Assembly (NCBI GenBank): GCA_000004695.1
Contig: CM000155.2
Span: 896,001-960,000 of the forward strand
Source of the DNA: Dictyostelium discoideum
Lineage: Eukaryota
DNA length: 64,000 nt
Direction of reading: 5' to 3'
The notes beneath the pieces were generated by a model. That model saw only the letters and a program-made list of their open reading frames with translations, was not told where the DNA came from and searched no databases. The translations under genes were made by a program, and so were the position numbers. Shown here in pieces: positions 2,266 through 63,252 of this stretch; position 1 is the stretch's first letter, and each line of letters opens with the position of its first letter.

Positions 2266-2339
2266 TGCCTCAGGCCGGGATCGAACCAGCGACCTTAAGA
2301 TCTTCAGTCTCACGCTCGTACCAACTGAGCTACTAAGGC
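2266..2339 (-). tRNA. tRNA-Phe (anticodon GAA)
   Basis: Reverse complement reads GCCTTAG TA GCTC AGTTGGTAC GAGC G TGAGA CTGAAGA TCTTA AGGTC GCTGG TTCGATC CCGGC CTGAGGC A. This gives a 7-bp acceptor stem, a 5-bp anticodon stem, anticodon GAA in a 7-nt loop, a T-arm GGTTCGATCC (B box) and discriminator A. The anticodon arm is nearly identical to yeast tRNA-Phe. A T5 pol III terminator follows on the coding strand. Confidence 0.85.
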
Positions 2340-8349: not shown

Positions 8350-10031
8350 ATGGATCAACCAACAATTGAAGAATATGAAGAAACTACTACTACTACTGCC
8401 ACTACTACTACAGTCACAAAAAAAGATGAGAAATCAAAAGTAGAAATTGGTGAAGGTGAAGCAGGTATTACATTTGAAGATTATGAGGAAGAAGGTGAAG
8501 AAGAAGGTGAAGAGGAAGGTGAAGAGGAGGAAGAAGAAGAAGAAGAAGAAAAAGATAAAGAAACCATCATTAAAAGTGCAGAGGGAAATGAAAAAGCAGG
8601 TGATCTTTTGATGAAAGAAAAAGATTATTCATCTGCATGTGGTTTATATTGTGTTGCTTTAAAAAATTTGTAATTATTCTCTTTATAGTTAAATAAAATA
8701 AAATAATAATAAAAATAATAAAAATATTAATTAAAATTATTTAAATTAGATCATCAATTTATGGTGCATTATCACCAAAAGTTGCACATTTATATGTTAA
8801 ATATGGTAATTCATTAATTTTAACCTATAAACAAGAAGAATCTGAAAATTTAATGAATTTATTAGGTTCAAAGATTAAAGAAATTGCTGAAAAAGGTGAA
8901 GATTCAACTACCTCTTCAACTACTCCACCACAAACAACTACTACTACAACCACCACCACCACAACTACTACAACTACTACAACCACTCCTACTGAAGATG
9001 CACCAGATAAGAATGCATCAGATAAAAAAAATAGTAAAAAAGAAGAAGAAGAATCTGAAGATATTTCAACTGAAGAATCATCAAAACCTGTAAATAAACT
9101 AAACACAAAAGAAAATGAAGATGATGAAGCAACTCCAATTCAAATCGCTTGGGAAGTTTTAGAAACTGCAAGAGTAATCTATGAAAAAGAAAAAGATAAA
9201 CAAATTGAACTTTCAGATGTACATGTTTCATTAGGTGATTTATTCATTGATTCTGGTAATTTTTAAAATTTTATAAAATTATATATAATTCTAAATTTAA
9301 ATTTAATTTTATTAATAATTTTTAATTTTTATTTTTTAATTTACATATATTTAGATCAAATTGAAAATGCAATTGAAGAATATGATAAAGCATTAAGAAT
9401 TAGAAAAGATATTAGAGATAATGATTTAAGATCAATTGCAGAGATTCATTATGCAATGGGTTTAGCATTCCATGTTGATAATAAAGCACCAATCGCTGAG
9501 AAACATTATAGAACTGCCATTGATTTATTGGGTGATCAATTGAATAAGATACAACAATCATTGAATGGAGAAACTGATACTGATAAATTAAAGAGTTTGG
9601 CTGATGAAATTCAAGAATTGAAAAATATTATCGTTGATCTTCAAGGTAGATTGGATGAAGTTGTTCCAATTGATACCTCAAATGAACCAGTACCAAAAGA
9701 ACTTCAACAGGATGAACAACAACCAGTTTTCTCAACTTCTGCTAGTCAAAATCCAATTAAACCTGGAACTCCAGTTAATACTTTTGGTGTAGTTGGTAAA
9801 TCTGCAAGAAGAAGTATTACACCTCAAACTAATAATAGTAATAGTAGTTCAACTCCTTCAACTCCAAATAAATTTACTCCAATTGAAACAACAACAACTA
9901 CTGCATCCACAACTGAAACCAACAATACTTCAACAACCAATGGTAAGAGAAGACTTGAAGATCTTATGAATGGTGCTCAAGTACCAGAATCATTTTCAAC
10001 AAATTCCGAAGAAAAAAAACAAAAACTATAA
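8350..10031 (+). CDS. nasp: NASP / SHNi-TPR family histone H3-H4 chaperone. Three exons: 8350..8669, 8750..9255, 9355..10031
   Basis: An acidic poly-E/EEG insert sits inside TPR-like helices. The conserved IQIAWEVLETARVIYEKE...LSDVHVSLGDLFIDSGNF|DQIENAIEEYDKALRIRKDIRDNDLRSIAEIHYAMGLAFHVDNKAPIAEKHYRTAIDLLGDQL matches the NASP core (LAWEMLD.A..I.....LAEVH..LGEVS.E.ENY..A.EE...CL......L.E.HYQLGLAY). Donor GTAATT at 8670 (phase 2), acceptor TAG at 8747..8749. Donor GTAATT at 9256 (phase 1), acceptor TAG at 9352..9354. A C-terminal coiled coil is present. Confidence 0.7.
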
Positions 10032-10093
10032 ATTATTAAAATAAAATAAAATAAATAATAAATAAAATTTATTCTATGTTTACAATAATTATT

Positions 10094-12415
<2,322 letters not shown>

Positions 12416-12467
12416 TCTATTATTTGTTACTAAAATTTCAATATCATAATAATAAAAACCATATTGA

Positions 12468-13205
12468 TTAAATAATATATTTATTATCTAAAATATATGA
12501 TACCATATTATCTTTATCTTTATTAAATTCCAAACACCATTTTATTGAATTTTTTTTTATATTATTTGTAATTATTTTATTTTTATCATTATTATTATTA
12601 TTATCAATAACTTTATTATTTATATAATTAATTAATAAATTTAATGTTAAAGTTGAAGAGTATTTTATTGAATATTCAATATGATAAGATGTAATTTTAA
12701 AATTTATTATTGATTCTGAAAATAATATTTCTAATAATTGGTTATTATCGGATCTAACAAGAAACATAACATGATCATTTTCAAATTGAAATTGGTATTG
12801 ATTTATTAATAATTTAAAAACTATTAAATGAATGTTTTTAATTTTTGATTGTCCACCAACGATTTTAACAGACTTTATAAAATCTATAATTTCACTTTTT
12901 GTAACTTGTATGAATTGTTTTGTTTCTAATTTATATTTCAATAAATCTAGGCAATTGTTTTTTACCATCCAACCAAATGAATAAATATTTTCAAATTTAA
13001 TTCTATTTTCTGTATAATAATACGTATAGTTTTGAAACTCAATATCCATATTTAGCATTAAATCAAAAATTAATCCATTTAAATATTTGTTTCTAAAAAC
13101 TTTCCAAAATAGTATCTCCCAAATATCCATTGGTATAATTGATTTATTCATTGGTTGAACTATAGATTTATTACTTAGAATATTAATTCCATTTTGTTTT
13201 TCCAT
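12468..13205 (-). CDS. Hypothetical protein, N-terminal part. It is probably the 5' portion of the same gene as 10094..12415, shifted by one frame
   Basis: ATG at 13205, giving a 245-aa ORF MEKQNGINILSNKSIVQPMNKSIIPMDIWEILFWKVF... that ends at TAA 12468..12470. It overlaps by about 20 nt the open upstream extension of the next frame. Confidence 0.4.
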   Translation of the reverse strand: MEKQNGINILSNKSIVQPMNKSIIPMDIWEILFWKVFRNKYLNGLIFDLMLNMDIEFQNYTYYYTENRIKFENIYSFGWMVKNNCLDLLKYKLETKQFIQVTKSEIIDFIKSVKIVGGQSKIKNIHLIVFKLLINQYQFQFENDHVMFLVRSDNNQLLEILFSESIINFKITSYHIEYSIKYSSTLTLNLLINYINNKVIDNNNNNDKNKIITNNIKKNSIKWCLEFNKDKDNMVSYILDNKYII

Positions 13206-13613
13206 TCACTGGGAAATTAATTAAAAAGTTTATTTTTTAAAGGCTGAACTCTTAAATGAATTAAAATTATAAAAATAGTCGGCTTTTTTTTGTGTGAAAA
13301 ATTGTTTTTTTTTACATAAAAAAAAAAAAAATTAAAAAAAAAAAAAAAAACCAACACCATGCAAATTACTTTTTTCATGTAAAAATTTAAAAAATTTTTA
13401 TAATCTAAAAAAAATTTAAAAAAAATCTAAAAAAAAAAAAAATCTTAATTTACTTTTTAATTTATTTTTATTTTATTTTTTATTTAAATAATCTTTAAAT
13501 TGTAAATAATATTATTTATTCTATTAATTTCTTTTAAAAAAAAAAAAATTTCATTTTATTTAAAAATCATTTACATTACATTAAATAATAAAATAAAAAA
13601 AAAAAAATTAAAA

Positions 13614-13859: not shown

Positions 13860-15014
13860 AATGGACTAATCTTATAATTTTTAAACCACTATATTGGGAA
13901 AAGTGTTAAAATTAGCAACCCAAAGAAATCTTGAATTGATGGGTCATCTTGTAGGGGGTAGTGTGTATGAACCAATTAATAAGTGAATTTGACATGTCTA
14001 TTTGTATATTTTTTTATAAATTCATTGTTTCAAATTCCTGGAAAGTCGTATAATTCACTCATGTCCGAGTGATATTGAGTTATAATAATTTGATTTAATA
14101 AATTGAAATCAATTTGAATGTTTATATTTAATATTGAATGAAAAATAGAAAAATATTGAGATTTATTAAATATGGACATGGATTATTCAAACCTATCAAA
14201 ATACATTAGTATTGAAAAAACTGGAAATAGGAGGTGTGGCCATAAATAATTTTTTTTTTTTTTTTTTTGTGTGATAGTATATGTTCAGTTCACAAAAACA
14301 ATTGAAAATATCCTGGCACTAACAATAGCTTTAAAAAAAAAAAAAAAAAATTGGATAAAATATTAAAAAGATGGATATCCATTTTGGATAATTAAAAAAA
14401 ATATGGATGGATAAAGATAATCAAAAAAGACACTTTTTATCCAAAAATGGATATAGGTAAAACACTAGTTTATTAGGAGGAATTTTAGGAGGGAATAAAG
14501 GTTTACTTGGTGGTTTATTAGGTGGTTTTCCAAATGCAAATTTTGGTATCAATGTTGAAAAACTAAAAAAAAAAAAAAAAAAAAAAAAAACCAACCTTTA
14601 CTAAATAAAATTATAACATTACTACTATTTCATAAGCATTCATTTTTTAAAAAATAAAAAAAAATATTTAAAATAAATTATAATAATTTTAAAAAACGTT
14701 GATGATTTTAAAAAATAATTAAAAAAATAAAAAAAAGATAAAAAAATGATTATTTCATGATATATCAATGAAATTAAAGTAATAATTAAGAAAAGACAAA
14801 AAGCTGTGTTTAAAAAAAAAAAAAAAAAAAACAGAAAAATCAATTCTTGATATTTTATCAAAATAAAAAAATATTTGACACAAAAAAAAAAAAAAAAATC
14901 ATAATGAAAATAAAAAAAAACAAAAAAAAAGTTATAATACTAATAATAATAATAATAATAATAATAGTAATAATAATATAATAATAATAGTAGTAATAAT
15001 ATAATAATAATAAA

Positions 15015-17749: not shown

Positions 17750-19090
17750 ACTAACGACATTTTTTTTTTAAAATAATGTAGAGTATTTAAATATGGAAAC
17801 AAATAAATATGTTTTTTTTTTTTTTTTTTTTTTTTTTAAACAGCCTGTTGCTTGCTTCTTTTTTTCCAATTTTTTTTTTTTTCAAATTCAATTCATTAAT
17901 CTGTTTAGTAAAACTCAAATTCAATTTTTTATAAATATCTTACTTCTCAATAAATATAATTTTATTGATATAAACATAAAAAAATAAATAAAATAAAAAT
18001 AATTTTTAAAATAATTATCTGTTTTCATTGAATTTATTTTATTTTATTTTATTTTATTTTTTTCATTTTTTGATATTTTTTTTTTTTTTAATATTTTATT
18101 TGTTAAAAAACAATCTATAAATTCTAAAATTAGTTTGTATTGTTTATATAATTATTTAAAAATAAATACCAATAATTATTAAAATTCCATTTTCAATTTT
18201 CAAAAATCATTTTTATTAGATTGAATGTAAATATTAAAATAAAATAAAAAAAAAAAAATAAAAAAAAGAAAAAGAAAAAAAAAATAAAAAAAAAAAGAAA
18301 AAAAAAACACACAGAGATTTTTTTATTTTTTTATTTTTTGTATTGATAAAAAAAAAAAAAAAAAAACAAAAAACAAAAAACAAAAAACAAATTATAATCA
18401 AAACAATTGCATTTCTTTTCATTTTTTAAAATATTTTGGTATTTTTGTTTTGTTTTTATTCAATTTTTGTAAGAATTTCTTTTACGAGGATTTTTTTTAA
18501 AAACAGATTGAATTTGGTAAAAAAAAAAAAGTACTTTTTTTTAAACAATTAAAATATTGTGATTAGAGTTTTAATCCTTAAAAAAGATTTTTTGAAATTA
18601 ATATTTTGATAAATTTTTATAAATCTATTCCTATTACTAAATTAGTTTATTTTATTTTATTTCGATTTTGATTTTGAATTTTTTTTTTTTTTTTTTTTTT
18701 TTTCCAAATTAATTTAATAATTTTCATTTTTTTAAAATCATATTATTTTTATAAAAAGGATCATTTTTATTATTATTTTTATTTATTTCAATAATAATAA
18801 GGGGATAAAAATATAAATTTCTTTTTTAGGATTTTAATTTAATATTGTCTAAATAAAGACCCAAAAATGAATAAAAATAATATTAATTCTAAATAAAAAA
18901 AAATTTGTTTTAAACAACATGTTTTTATTTTTTTATTTTTTTTATTTTTTTTTTCAATTTTTTTTTTTTTATTTTTTTGAATTTTTATTTTTTATTTTTT
19001 TTAAAAAAAAGCAAACTTATTATAAAAATTTATTTCATTCTTTCAATACGCGCCAAAATTTTCTTTTTTTTTTTTTTTAAACAAAAGTAA

Positions 19091-56137: not shown

Positions 56138-56225
56138 ATGCAATCTTTTATTCCAAAATTTTGGGAAAATACAAATAATAATAATAATGATATAATTAAT
56201 AAAGAAATAAATGTAGATAATAGGA

Positions 56226-56319
<94 letters not shown>

Positions 56320-57039
56320 AAATTTACAAAATAATTTAAATGTTAATGTTTTAACTATATTAAGAAAATATCAAAAAATTTTCAATGAAATTGAAACGTT
56401 AATATCAAGTTGGGAATATTCAGAGAATAATTTATTTATAGTTTTTAAAAATATTTTATCATTTTTAGAAAGATATAATATATTAATAAATACATCCACA
56501 ATATCAACAATAAATTCAAATGAAATTGATTTAAATAATGACTCAAATGGTATAAGAATTGATTATTTTAGATTATTTAAAGATTCAAATAATAATAATA
56601 ATAATAATAATTCTATAGAATTTGAATTAAAATTAAAAATAATTGATAAATTAGAAGAATCAATGATATCATTAGATGAATATCAAAGAGAAATGAAAAA
56701 AGTTATAGAAAAATTTGATTCGTTTAAAATTGAAATTGACCAATATTGGGAAACAAATATTTTTTCTTTAAAATCATTATCAACAACGACAACAACAACA
56801 ATTGATAAAAATATATATATAAAAATAAATGAATTAAATCAAGGAAGTTTTTCAAATTCACCAATAACACAAATTGATCAATGGTTTCATTTTATTGTTA
56901 ATCAATTTAAATTAGAATTTCAAAGAAGAGATGGTTTATTAAAAAATTTAGAATATAATAAACCAATTAAACAATTAAACTCAATTTTTGAAAATTATGA
57001 AAAAAATACCAATTTTTCTTTAAATAATAGTATGTTTAG

Positions 57040-57073
<34 letters not shown>

Positions 57074-57085
57074 TTTCTTAACTAA
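56138..57085 (+). CDS. N-rich hypothetical protein. It may carry a terminal intron: alternative 3' end 56138..57029 joined to 57115..57161
   Basis: 315-aa ORF with a (AAT)n poly-N tract. The ORF-track C-terminus [16 protein letters not shown] is translated from an A28 run, preceded by a GTATGT at 57030. Splicing from there to TAG|TTAGGGAAATAATACC at 57112..57114 would give ...SLNNIREIIPKVNGVIKEM*. Confidence 0.4.
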
Positions 57086-58164
57086 TTATTATTATTTTTT
57101 TTTTCTATTTTTAGTTAGGGAAATAATACCAAAAGTTAATGGAGTTATAAAAGAAATGTAAATAAAATAAAACAAAATAAAAAACTATTATAAATTTTAT
57201 ATCTTTTTTTTTATTTTTATTTTTATTTTTATTTTTTAATCAAATTATTAAATTAATTGGTTTTTTTTTTTTAAATTTAAATGGTGTTATTTCATTTTAT
57301 TACATGAATTAATACTATCCTTTATTTGGTGTTTCCTAATTGTGTTCCACTAACAAAAAACTAGGAGAAAGAAAAAGTAAAAATTGTCAAGAAAAAAAGA
57401 AAAAATAAAAAATAAAATAAGATAAATATTTATAAAAACAATTTTATATATATTTTTTTTTTAATTACGTTATTATATTTAATTTATTTTTTATTTTTAT
57501 TTATTTTTATTTTAAAAAGCAAGAAAGCTGGAATGCTGCAAAAAAAGCTTACCCTTTTTTTTAAACACCAATTTAACTTTTGGTGCTTTTTTGCAATTGT
57601 TGTGAAAATATCTTTTTAATAATACTAAAAATAATTTTTTTTTTTTATTTGATTGATCAATTGTGTTTGTTATAATTTTTTTTTTTCTAATTTTAAATCG
57701 TTTCCACTGAATACATAGTTTTTTTTTCTCATAATATATTTTTTTTTATTTTCTTTTATTTTCTAATTTTAAAATCCCCATGATACTTATTTTTTTTAAT
57801 TTTTTTTTTATTATTTTTCTATTTAAAACCTAAAATTTTTTTTTTCTTTAATTTTGTTTTCATTTTTAAAAATTATATTGGTTTTTATTTATTAGTTTTA
57901 AATTTTCAATTATAAGTATTATTTAATATTATAAATTTTTCTTTTTATATATTAATTATTTTTTTTTTTTTTCAATTTTAAAATTGAACAAATTTGTCCA
58001 ATTCCGTACTGTATCAATTCTAATCATTTTTAAAGCTCTGCTTGAACTCTCGGTTTCATTTTCACAATTAATATGGCACATCAACCCCCAATTAAACAGG
58101 CTTACGCCCACTACTCTGTACCACATTATCAGTATTTCAATGGCCATGAAAGAGTTTTTGTGTA

Positions 58165-58312
58165 ATTATTATGACGGATTAGATAAAAGAACATTGAAAC
58201 TGAAATTGAAATCCATCTTGATAATATACATATTTTGGATATCCTAAATATGTTTATTATCAAGATGGATTTCAATTTTCAATATTCTTTTATCTAATCC
58301 GTCATAATAATA
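58165..58312. repeat. Long imperfect inverted repeat (hairpin of about 148 nt) in intergenic DNA
   Basis: The left arm attattatgacggattagataaaagaacattgaaactgaaattgaaatccatcttgataata pairs with the right arm tattatcaagatggatttcaattttcaatattcttttatctaatccgtcataataat. The central loop itself holds the palindrome ggatatcc. The GC-richer non-coding stretch 57990..58160 lies just upstream. Confidence 0.7.
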
Positions 58313-58329: not shown

Positions 58330-58565
58330 ATATAAAAATAAATGAATTAAATCAAGGAAGTTTTTCAAATTCATCATTAACACAAATTGATCAATGTTTT
58401 CATTTTATTATTAATTAATTTAAATTAGAATTTCAAAGAAGAGATAGTTATTAAAAATTTTGGAATATAATAAACCAATTAAACAATTAAACTCAATTTT
58501 TTGAAAATTATGAAAAGAATATCACTTTTTCTTTAAATATAATAGTATGTTTGGGAAATAAAAAA
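58330..58565 (+). pseudogene. Degenerate segmental duplicate (about 235 bp) of the 3' end of gene 56138..57085, including the start of its putative terminal intron
   Basis: 58330..58565 (aaaaataaatgaattaaatcaaggaagtttttcaaattcatcattaacacaaattgatcaatgttttcattttatt...ttctttaaatataatagtatgtttggg) aligns with 56815..57045 (..caaattcaccaataacacaaattgatcaatggtttcattttattgtt...tttctttaaataatagtatgtttag). There are about 10% substitutions and small indels that break the frame. Confidence 0.5.
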
Positions 58566-58735
58566 AAAAAAAATAAAAAAAATCATTTTCATAATTATTA
58601 TTTTCTAAAGTGTGTTGGCTGGGGAAAAAAAAAAAAAAAAAAAAAATATACAAATAATATAAGAAAAATACAATAAACAAGTAGGAAATAGGATATATTA
58701 TGTTTGATAACTCTCTGAAATCTAATTTATTGAAT

Positions 58736-60856: not shown

Positions 60857-61079
60857 AAATCTTTTTTTTTTTTGACTATTTTTAATTTCCAATAAAACAT
60901 CTAAAAATAAATAATTACTTTTTTTAAAATACCCATAGTTTAAATCTCATTCAAATTGAAAAAAGAGTAAAATTTAAAAATTTAAAAGAAAATAATAAAA
61001 ATAACCCTTTTCAAGCTTTTGTTAATCAAATTCAAATTTTAACTTGTTATTCTCAATTTTTTTTTTTTTCCACTAGTAA

Positions 61080-61435: not shown

Positions 61436-62096
61436 AATAAAAATAGATAAATAAATAAGCAAAAAAAAAATGGTTTAAGAAGAGTATTTTTATTGAATAT
61501 CGTCTTCTGAGACTTTTTTTTTATTCGAAAGACTATAAATGATATTTAACTTTAAAAAAAAAAAAAAAAAAAAAAAATTGAAAAATAAAATAAAGATTAT
61601 ATAAAAAAAAAAACTCTTAGGAAACGATATTCACTAAAATTACTCTTCTTAAAACATTTTTTTTTGTTTATTTATTTATCTATTTATTGATTAATCTATT
61701 TTTAAATTTTAATAATTATTTTTTTTTTTTTTTTTTTTTTTTAATTTTTTTTTTTCCTTACTTCTAAAATTCCCATACCACAAAAATAAACCATTTTCAA
61801 CAAACTTTTGTTAATCTAATTCTCATTTTCTTCAAAATTATATTGATTTGTAACTTCTAAAAAGTTTTGAATTGTTTTAAGGTTGCCATTATTGAGTACA
61901 GGAGCATGTCCGATAACACTACCTAAGCCGAATTGCAGCTGTATGGTTTAGCATTATGATCAATGAGTTTAATGAGAGATAATTTCAAAAAAACTCCATT
62001 AATAAATAATTCACTTGGAATTTTGGGAACCTGAATTCCTTTTTGCTTATAACTGGAAAGCAATAATCTTAAAGGTATTGATGGGAGACTATAACA

Positions 62097-62240
62097 GTAT
62101 TATCGTTGATGTATTCTTGATATCTAATATAACCAATTTCCTCCAATTTATATTTACTACAATTGGTATTGATCACAAGTAAATATAAATTGGAGGAAAT
62201 TGGTTATAATAGATATCAAGAATACATTAACGATAATACT
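62097..62240. repeat. Near-perfect 62-nt inverted repeat with a 19-nt spacer (hairpin of about 144 nt) in intergenic DNA
   Basis: Arm 62097..62158 gtattatcgttgatgtattcttgatatctaatataaccaatttcctccaatttatatttact and arm 62178..62240 agtaaatataaattggaggaaattggttataatagatatcaagaatacattaacgataatac are reverse complements with 2 mismatches. The spacer is acaattggtattgatcaca. Confidence 0.8.
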
Positions 62241-63252
62241 CATTGGAGATTTATCCACTTGGGTGGATTACTAATAAATGATGGGATTGACTCCTTATCA
62301 TTTTATTTAATTTTATATCATATATAAATGATTTTAATGTGATATTACCAGATTCAACAGCTGGAAACGAGTGATATAGAAATTCTATTTCTTCACCTGG
62401 AGTAGGAATTTGATTTCTTGATAGAAAAAAATCAATGAATGTAAGAAGTAAGCTTTAACTTTTTCTTTAAATAATTTGACGAGCCATAAAAAACAACAAA
62501 TAACAAATAATTAAAGAAATAAACTTACTTTTAAAATGAATGTAATATAATATAAATATAATTGGAAAAAAAATTGAAAACAAATTAAAGAAAAACAAAA
62601 TTAATTTTTTAAAAAAGTAAGGGTGGTTAGATATTAAAGTTTTAGCCGCATAAAATTAATTAATTTTATGCGGCGATGGTGGGTTTGTCACATCATTTTT
62701 TTTTTTTAATTATTTTTTTTTTTTATTTTCTATGCGACTGCCCTTTTTAAAACATAATGAAAATAAAATAAAAAAAAATATTGGTTTTAAATAAGAAATA
62801 ATAATGATAAAAAAAAATTATAAAAAAAAATAAAAAATGTGTAAATTTTATTTTTTACTCCTAAATTTAGTTTTTATCATAATTTTTTTTATCATATTCA
62901 TAAATAACTAACTGATGTTTATTTAAATTTGGATATTTTTTTTTTTCATATCTCAACCTATCTTATGAATATGATCTTTTCATAATTCGAAAGTTGTTCA
63001 AAAAAGTGCGAAAAATTTGATGATTGGAATAAATAGCCAATAATAATAATAAAAAAAAAAAAAAAAAAAAATTAAAAAAAAATTAAATAAAAAAAAAAAA
63101 ACCAAATGGGAACCTGGTTAAAAAATTGATTAAGAAGGTGTTGAATTATAATTAATCAATGAAGATGGTAAATAAATTTGAAAAATTAATGAATGAAATG
63201 AATTTTATTTCTTTTTAAAATATTTTTTTTTTTTTTTTAAAAAAAAAAAACT

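Follow-up and report, generated by a model that had tools for sequence, protein, structure and literature searches.

Two long, near-perfect inverted repeats lie 4 kb apart in intergenic DNA of Dictyostelium discoideum, and a reading of the sequence alone had proposed that they are candidate MITEs or small-RNA precursors. Here we ask what these two structures are. The DNA that we analyzed, hereafter the window, is a 64-kb stretch of AX4 chromosome 6 (896,001-960,000, plus orientation); positions are given in window coordinates, which are related to chromosomal ones by an offset of 896000.

Two outlying folds in the window

In a stability scan with sliding 150-nt RNA folds over the whole window, the two best folds were the two hairpins (-82.5 and -75.8 kcal/mol), hairpin 1 being the second most stable. 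The third-best fold reached only -40.9 kcal/mol, and the scan as a whole had a mean of -16.6 and a standard deviation (sd) of 8.0 kcal/mol, making the two hairpins 7-8 sd outliers among all 150-nt folds of the window. A chance origin of both stable folds is ruled out.

Folding bore out both inverted repeats that the sequence-only reading had reported, with z scores of about -17.8 for hairpin 1 and about -20 for hairpin 2. The geometry first given for them, with arms of about 60 nt and loops of 19-30 nt, describes hairpin 2 (62096-62240), whose 63-nt arms (62096-62158 and 62178-62240) are 97% complementary and separated by a 19-nt spacer, but not hairpin 1 (58165-58311, unstranded; AX4 chr6:954165-954311). 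The latter is a 147-bp palindrome with arms of about 70 nt and a spacer that is nearly nil (0-4 nt), because its center, GGATATCC, is itself palindromic; the left half differs from the reverse complement of the right by 3 mismatches and one 5-nt indel.

The minimum free energy (MFE) of hairpin 1 is -82.4 kcal/mol on the plus strand and -85.8 kcal/mol on the minus strand, or -0.56 to -0.58 kcal/mol per nt at 37 °C and -0.71 to -0.74 at 22 °C. For hairpin 2 the MFE is -87.9 (plus) and -84.0 (minus) kcal/mol, a stability reached by 0 of 200 dinucleotide-preserving shuffles, and the energy per nt is -0.58 at 37 °C and -0.74 at 22 °C, next to a published value of -0.73. Both hairpins fall below the free-energy threshold of -0.2 kcal/mol per nt of the miRBase high-confidence set, as applied by Liao 2018. 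They are also close in GC content (0.22 for hairpin 1, 0.24 for hairpin 2) and in length (147 and 145 nt).

These similarities do not extend to sequence. A local alignment of the arms is no better than with shuffled sequence, its score being reached by 59/500 and 121/500 shuffles, and the two hairpins are thus mutually unrelated, as had been supposed. The lack of coding potential at both loci was likewise borne out: we found no long ORFs, and none of six ORFs taken from the two loci matches a Pfam family. An exhaustive HMMER search with an 87-aa ORF over the leader and arm of hairpin 1 returned a single borderline match (E 9e-4); it is to a repeat motif in a beta-propeller protein that is unrelated, and we regard it as chance.

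Hairpin 2 is ddi-mir-1185

Hairpin 2 is the published miRNA gene ddi-mir-1185, on the minus strand. Its stem-loop at 62096-62240 corresponds to the published locus DDB0232433:958097-958239, listed as a single intergenic locus on the minus strand (Liao 2018, PMC6161686, Table S1), and when the published 182-nt precursor (Liao 2018 Fig. S2) is aligned with the minus strand of the window, 181 of 184 positions agree. The other three are single-base gains or losses in homopolymers, which we attribute to PDF-to-text conversion. The proposal of a small-RNA precursor thus holds for hairpin 2, which has been characterized experimentally; for hairpin 1 it is plausible but unproven.

Mature mir-1185-3p, TATCAAGAATACATCAACGAT, maps exactly to 62102-62122 (minus strand) and is the dominant product, with 880 reads in the wild type versus 6 in drnB- cells; it was also positive on a northern blot, and the signal was gone in drnB- cells (Liao 2018, PMC6161686). 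The 5′-arm product, mir-1185-5p (CGTTAATGTATTCTTGATATC), maps exactly to 62212-62232 on the same strand, with a read count (41-48) that differs between tables. A second, adjacent duplex is represented by the 3′-arm small RNA AAATTGGTTATATTAGATATC at 62119-62139 and the 5′-arm small RNA TCTATTATAACCAATTTCCTCC at 62192-62213, both mapping to the minus strand. Two neighboring duplexes from the mir-1185 stem were reported, with imprecise 5p ends (39% common 5′ end), and with 48 and 882 reads the locus exceeds the requirement of at least 10 reads per arm (Liao 2018, PMC6161686); the criteria of that study further ask that the top pair form a duplex with a 2-nt 3′ overhang.

The predicted primary transcript, pri-mir-1185, spans 61768-62754 on the minus strand, from poly(A) RNA-seq coverage (DDB0232433:957768-958754, Liao 2018 Table S3). 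Its putative promoter or transcription start site motif, a T-rich motif ending in G (ATTTTTTTTTATTTTATTTTCATTATG), matches exactly at 62753-62779 (minus strand); since the published position is 958753-958779, this independently confirms the coordinate offset of 896000 that the published locus of mir-1185 sets, and with it the attribution to Dictyostelium made by the sequence-only reading. Between 61825 and 62499 the GC content is 0.25-0.33, compared to 0.09-0.16 in spacers. An unusual, moderately GC-rich stretch that had been noted at 61880-62095 is therefore real, and because the predicted primary transcript extends over it, it can be identified as belonging to pri-mir-1185, toward its 3′ end. 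For the model miRNAs mir-1176 and mir-1177, Pol II was shown to make the transcript, with an m7G cap (Liao 2018, PMC6161686), and we infer the same for mir-1185.

In the mechanism that follows from the published work, a primary transcript of about 1 kb starts just downstream of the T-rich motif, runs along the minus strand across the GC-richer non-coding region, and folds into the 145-nt near-perfect hairpin. Starting at the base of the stem, the Dicer-like enzyme DrnB then releases two 21-nt duplexes that lie side by side, with mir-1185-3p predominating.

In the 5′ part of pri-mir-1185, the segment 62360-62480 (minus strand) has coding-like GC at the three codon positions (0.34, 0.40, 0.10) and a 67-aa open frame; it is the only segment with this property among the loci and flanks tested, and no homologue of the 67-aa ORF was found among 5.8 billion proteins.

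Surroundings of hairpin 1

Hairpin 1 sits in an unusually long spacer of about 1.5 kb in which the 3′ ends of a CA109/CK2S-like gene and rpl3 converge, about 390 nt past the rpl3 stop region. The CA109/CK2S-like gene has two exons (exon 1, 56138-57029; intron, 57030-57114; exon 2, 57115-57161).

The GC-richer surroundings that the sequence-only reading had described are real at both hairpins. At hairpin 1, a GC-richer non-coding block (57986-58164, unstranded) adjoins the palindrome, and GC content is 0.35-0.37 both in this block, versus 0.09-0.14 in the spacer, and at about 58000-58220, versus 0.09-0.16 in spacers. The block has no clear codon periodicity, no Pfam match, no credible protein homologue, and no above-threshold Rfam match. 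If hairpin 1 has a plus-strand primary transcript, this block would form its leader. The enrichment is confined to one side of the hairpin; on the other side lies a gene-fragment duplicate.

This duplicate (58330-58602, plus strand) had been sized at 235 bp; it exists, but that figure is too short, as the alignment extends over 273 bp (277 columns) at 91% identity to 56817-57090 (plus strand) inside the intact CA109/CK2S-like gene. It runs from the final 213 nt of exon 1 across the splice donor and 61 nt into the intron, and its truncated 5′ end abuts hairpin 1 with a gap of about 5-20 nt.

We scanned for promoter motifs with a weight matrix built from 12 published T-rich/G motifs. Candidates lie upstream of hairpin 1 at 57961-57986 and 57835-57856 (plus strand), and sites of similar quality recur at intervals of 17-250 nt on either strand. 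The motif is no guide to the strand of hairpin 1 because equally good sites are present throughout the window. An asymmetry between G:U and A:C pairs, used as a strand indicator, would choose the wrong strand for mir-1185. As the two strands of hairpin 1 have nearly identical arms, strand matters little for the identity of a product: the palindrome would give almost the same small RNAs from either strand, and the predicted product, UGACGGAUUAGAUAAAAGAA(C/U), is identical from both.

Sister genomes and a rearranging spacer

We compared the window with two sister assemblies, L001 (GCA_054859355.1, labelled D. discoideum) and L002 (GCA_054859205.1, labelled D. cf. discoideum), whose coding DNA differs from that of the window by only 1.1-2.6%. 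The CA109/CK2S-like gene has homologues in both. Hairpin 1 together with its GC-richer block is missing at the syntenic loci of both assemblies, as is the mir-1185 unit. The whole mir-1185 transcription unit falls within an AX4-specific block of 1.1 kb (61823-62935, unstranded), in place of which L001 has about 93 nt of AT-rich spacer and L002 has unrelated DNA.

The spacer between the CA109-like gene and rpl3 has a different structure in each of the three closely related genomes. AX4 carries the direct duplicate of the CA109-like 3′ fragment beside hairpin 1. In L001 the 3′ end of rpl3 is present as an inverted duplicate (13443-13520 and 13988-14065), with 78-nt arms that are 95% complementary and 467 nt apart. 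L002 has duplicates of both gene ends and two extra ORFs. The L001 and L002 spacers have about 0.8 kb in common, in opposite orientation. Because this spacer differs in all three genomes, the suggestion that the first locus is a rearrangement hot-spot is supported.

Comparison of the three genomes suggests that the AX4 lineage acquired both hairpins recently, repeated losses elsewhere being a less parsimonious account. Rapid lineage-specific turnover of miRNAs has been described, with unusually long hairpins that have no or almost no mismatches taken as newly evolved (Edelbroek 2024), and the absence of both hairpins from the sister genomes is in keeping with the speed at which miRNAs arise and vanish in Amoebozoa.

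Several further features came to light in these comparisons. Read-through transcription of the L001 rpl3 inverted duplicate could form a long hairpin with rpl3 sequence. In the intergenic spot that mir-1185 occupies in AX4, L002 has its own unrelated 200-nt hairpin (18862-19080; -66.3 kcal/mol, z -11.7), preceded by a long T-run and then ATTTAAATG; this may be an independently born hairpin gene. In AX4, a third, weaker inverted repeat (-50.5 kcal/mol, z -9.3) lies at 61465-61662, in the interval that separates the 3′ end of pri-mir-1185 from the region upstream of rpl3. Its arms of about 45 nt are not of low complexity, enclose an A-rich loop of about 100 nt, and are well conserved in L001 (16537-16611 and 16765-16839) despite a deletion in the loop. 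Two copies of a motif of about 48 nt (…AAATAAACCATTTTCAACAAACTTTTGTTAATCTAATTC), 79% identical, lie at 61770-61829 and 60997-61040, and two copies are conserved in L001; just before the copy at 61774-61788 stands AAATTCCCATACCAC, a sequence similar to the upstream sequence element found at small ncRNA genes in Dictyostelium.

Relative to AX4, L002 has a 1.55-kb insertion (8546-9715) that separates the acyltransferase gene from the CA109-like gene and has a 389-aa ORF that weakly matches tyrosine recombinases (Phage_integrase); this may be a DIRS/Crypton-like element. The deposited L001 model of the CA109-like gene (10001-12577) is 2.6 kb long and adds a C-terminal extension (…IPEKSNVASSDCTLNTHCILLEQLIPM) that is lacking in AX4 and in the 298-aa L002 protein, and is probably an over-extended annotation.

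The hairpins are very probably not MITEs

If both hairpins were MITE-like fold-back transposable elements of the thug kind, their shared size, both being inverted repeats of about 145 bp, and their location within lineage-specific DNA would be explained, and a tyrosine-recombinase-like ORF has been inserted nearby in L002. The other evidence argues against this. The hairpins resemble each other no more than they resemble shuffled sequence, each is present once in the window, and a search of the 64 kb and of 43 kb of L001 and L002 gave no further copy of either one or of its flanks. Neither is bounded by a target-site duplication: the flanks read …GTGTA / ATTCA… for hairpin 1 and …TATAAC / CATTGG… for hairpin 2, with no direct repeat at the inverted-repeat ends. 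The lineage-specific blocks, at about 1.1 kb, are far larger than the hairpins. In addition, mir-1185 was published as a unique intergenic locus and handled apart from the multicopy thug-S miRNA loci (Liao 2018, PMC6161686); six thug-S miRNA loci are listed, none of them on chromosome 6 near these hairpins, and thug-S is a DNA transposon with an intron rather than a 150-bp fold-back (Meier 2016). A transposon origin for the pair is thus extremely improbable, and our verdict, with copy number assessed in the window and the two sister regions, is that neither hairpin is likely to be a MITE, contrary to the first of the two initial proposals.

Small-RNA catalogs and databases

The interval chr6:954165-954311 is absent from Tables S1 and S3 and Fig. 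S2 of Liao 2018; the catalog of Avesson 2012 lay outside this comparison. Hairpin 1 is also absent from Tables S3 and S4 of Meier 2016 and from the supplements of Edelbroek 2024, and its k-mers have no relevant match in the Liao 2018 and Edelbroek 2024 supplements or in the Dictyostelium papers that we searched. One of these three small-RNA surveys detected mir-1185, 4 kb away. Absence from all three suggests that hairpin 1 is weakly or not expressed, is processed too imprecisely to satisfy miRNA criteria, or had already been named in Avesson 2012. D. discoideum has 27 miRNA loci, 17 of them from Avesson 2012, and five intergenic loci without poly(A) reads were given without coordinates (Liao 2018, PMC6161686). 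Later tables place about 10 of the Avesson 2012 miRNAs, none of them near hairpin 1.

One published entry, ddis_Cluster_1065 (Edelbroek 2024 Table S3; 144 nt, -0.575 kcal/mol per nt), was considered as a match to hairpin 1 and rejected: it is too unstable beside the values that hairpin 1 gives at 22 °C, and no 144-nt window yields -82.75 kcal/mol, the value for the cluster. We took published energies as 22 °C folds because folding at 22 °C reproduces the Liao 2018 value for mir-1185.

Searched with Rfam at gathering thresholds, the window contains only a tRNA-Phe (GAA) gene (2266-2339, minus strand) and no family for either hairpin. Relaxed thresholds gave only sub-threshold matches to unrelated plant and animal miRNA models, of the sort that any generic hairpin gives. 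The Rfam null is uninformative because Rfam holds no D. discoideum miRNA family. No Logan or NCBI contigs with the hairpin-locus ORFs or the rpl3 exon are on record, and those that carry the Arc1p-like ORF measure only about 1.2 kb and end before mir-1185.

What is hairpin 1?

We consider it probable that the two fold-back loci, whether genes or structures, are independent of each other, hairpin 2 being mir-1185 and hairpin 1 likely an earlier or weaker instance of the same kind. Hairpin 1 itself is a candidate young hairpin-RNA locus, or else a silent palindrome left by rearrangement. Its size, stability, and GC content close to those of mir-1185, its GC-richer flank, which recalls the flanks of mir-1185, and its position in an over-long convergent spacer speak for the production of small RNAs, which we rate at slightly less than an even chance. 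Under this reading, hairpin 1 would be a very young inverted duplication that arose in the spacer separating the two convergent genes, which is prone to rearrangement. Its transcript, if made, would fold into a near-perfect 70-bp RNA stem, and Dicer-like enzymes could cut that stem into RNAs of about 21 nt, yielding a proto-miRNA or hairpin-siRNA locus. A miRNA in a pseudogene context has a precedent in D. discoideum, mir-1184 (Liao 2018, PMC6161686, Table S1).

The main rival to the small-RNA reading, and nearly as likely, takes hairpin 1 for a silent DNA palindrome that is selectively neutral and has no RNA function, a by-product of fold-back repair or template switching as the spacer rearranged; we regard this as a real if tentative possibility. 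A near-zero spacer is what a hairpin-capped break or a template switch is expected to leave, the palindrome abuts the truncated 5′ end of the gene-fragment duplicate, and the surrounding spacer has a different structure in all three genomes. Its absence from the surveys of Liao 2018, Meier 2016, and Edelbroek 2024 points the same way, although their strict miRNA criteria would drop heterogeneous hairpin siRNAs. Against silence stand the GC-richer block in which hairpin 1 is embedded, typical of transcribed DNA in this genome, and the working miRNA gene of nearly identical structure type 4 kb away. It is unlikely that hairpin 1 is instead a miRNA already annotated in Avesson 2012, for which we considered ddi-mir-7094, 7099, 7100, 7101, and thug-S-derived loci. 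The hairpin has every structural hallmark of a precursor, and most of the loci of Liao 2018 (17/27) come from that catalog, five intergenic loci having no coordinates; yet later miRNA tables hold no coordinate on chromosome 6 near 954 kb, and the papers and supplements searched have no match to its k-mers.

Two further readings draw on the neighboring genes. Lying between two convergent 3′ ends, a short way past the rpl3 stop region, hairpin 1 could act in cis at the level of DNA or of the nascent transcript, perhaps by terminating the CA109-like and rpl3 units or by keeping them apart as a barrier. We give this almost no weight: the sister genomes do without hairpin 1, it is much longer and more perfect than known terminator hairpins, and such structures are not known to take part in Pol II 3′-end formation in D. 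discoideum. Very unlikely as well, though conceivable, is that hairpin 1 and the adjoining CA109/CK2S-like fragment form a newborn silencing module that makes siRNAs against the neighboring gene. Read-through from rpl3 on the minus strand, a gene which this reading calls highly expressed, would carry the antisense CA109/CK2S-like fragment directly into hairpin 1, and dicing of the hairpin would recruit RdRP-dependent spreading that generates siRNAs against the CA109/CK2S-like gene. RrpC/DrnB 5′ spreading is documented in D. discoideum. If true, the locus would show a small-RNA gene at its birth, which came after the split of AX4 from genomes that diverge by only 1-2.6%.

Only about 27 miRNA loci are known in D. 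discoideum, and their turnover is very fast. If hairpin 1 is a small-RNA gene, it would offer a clean example of amoebozoan gene birth by inverted duplication in rearranging spacers; if it is silent, it is a structural curiosity only.

Comparison with known systems

In the model that Allen et al. reportedly proposed in 2004, young plant MIRNA genes are born by inverted duplication of a target gene. Both hairpins share the long, almost perfect arms and the lineage specificity of such genes, and mir-1185 also yields more than one phased duplex. They differ in that no parental or target gene was found for either hairpin, whether at the protein level or within the window. The protein-level negative is weak because the AX4 proteome is apparently poorly represented in the database; the best near-complementary targets within the window have 3-4 mismatches and lie in AT-rich DNA.

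With thug-S and MITEs, the hairpins have in common a fold-back inverted repeat, and thug-S gives miRNA-like RNAs. Unlike thug-S, which is multicopy and gives rise to its RNAs in the intron of a DNA transposon, the hairpins are unrelated, occur once each in the window, and lack target-site duplications.

Other DrnB-dependent miRNA genes, such as mir-1176, mir-1177, and mir-7097, are intergenic and transcribed by Pol II; each has a T-rich motif ending in G, the leader ahead of the hairpin is 116-281 nt long, and the hairpins measure 100-150 nt (Liao 2018, PMC6161686). Compared to these, a promoter motif for hairpin 1 is indistinguishable from background. Most known D. discoideum precursors are imperfectly paired, with energies of -0.43 to -0.70 kcal/mol per nt, and both hairpins described here fall at the most stable and most perfect end.

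The closest comparison is between the two hairpins themselves. Hairpin 2, as ddi-mir-1185, was already known, and hairpin 1 is at best an unverified further member of the same kind. It differs from ddi-mir-1185 in sequence, in having essentially no loop spacer (versus 19 nt), in GC enrichment on only one flank, and in that published small-RNA evidence was not found for it. In length, stability per nt, GC content, near-perfect pairing, and lineage restriction, the two are alike.
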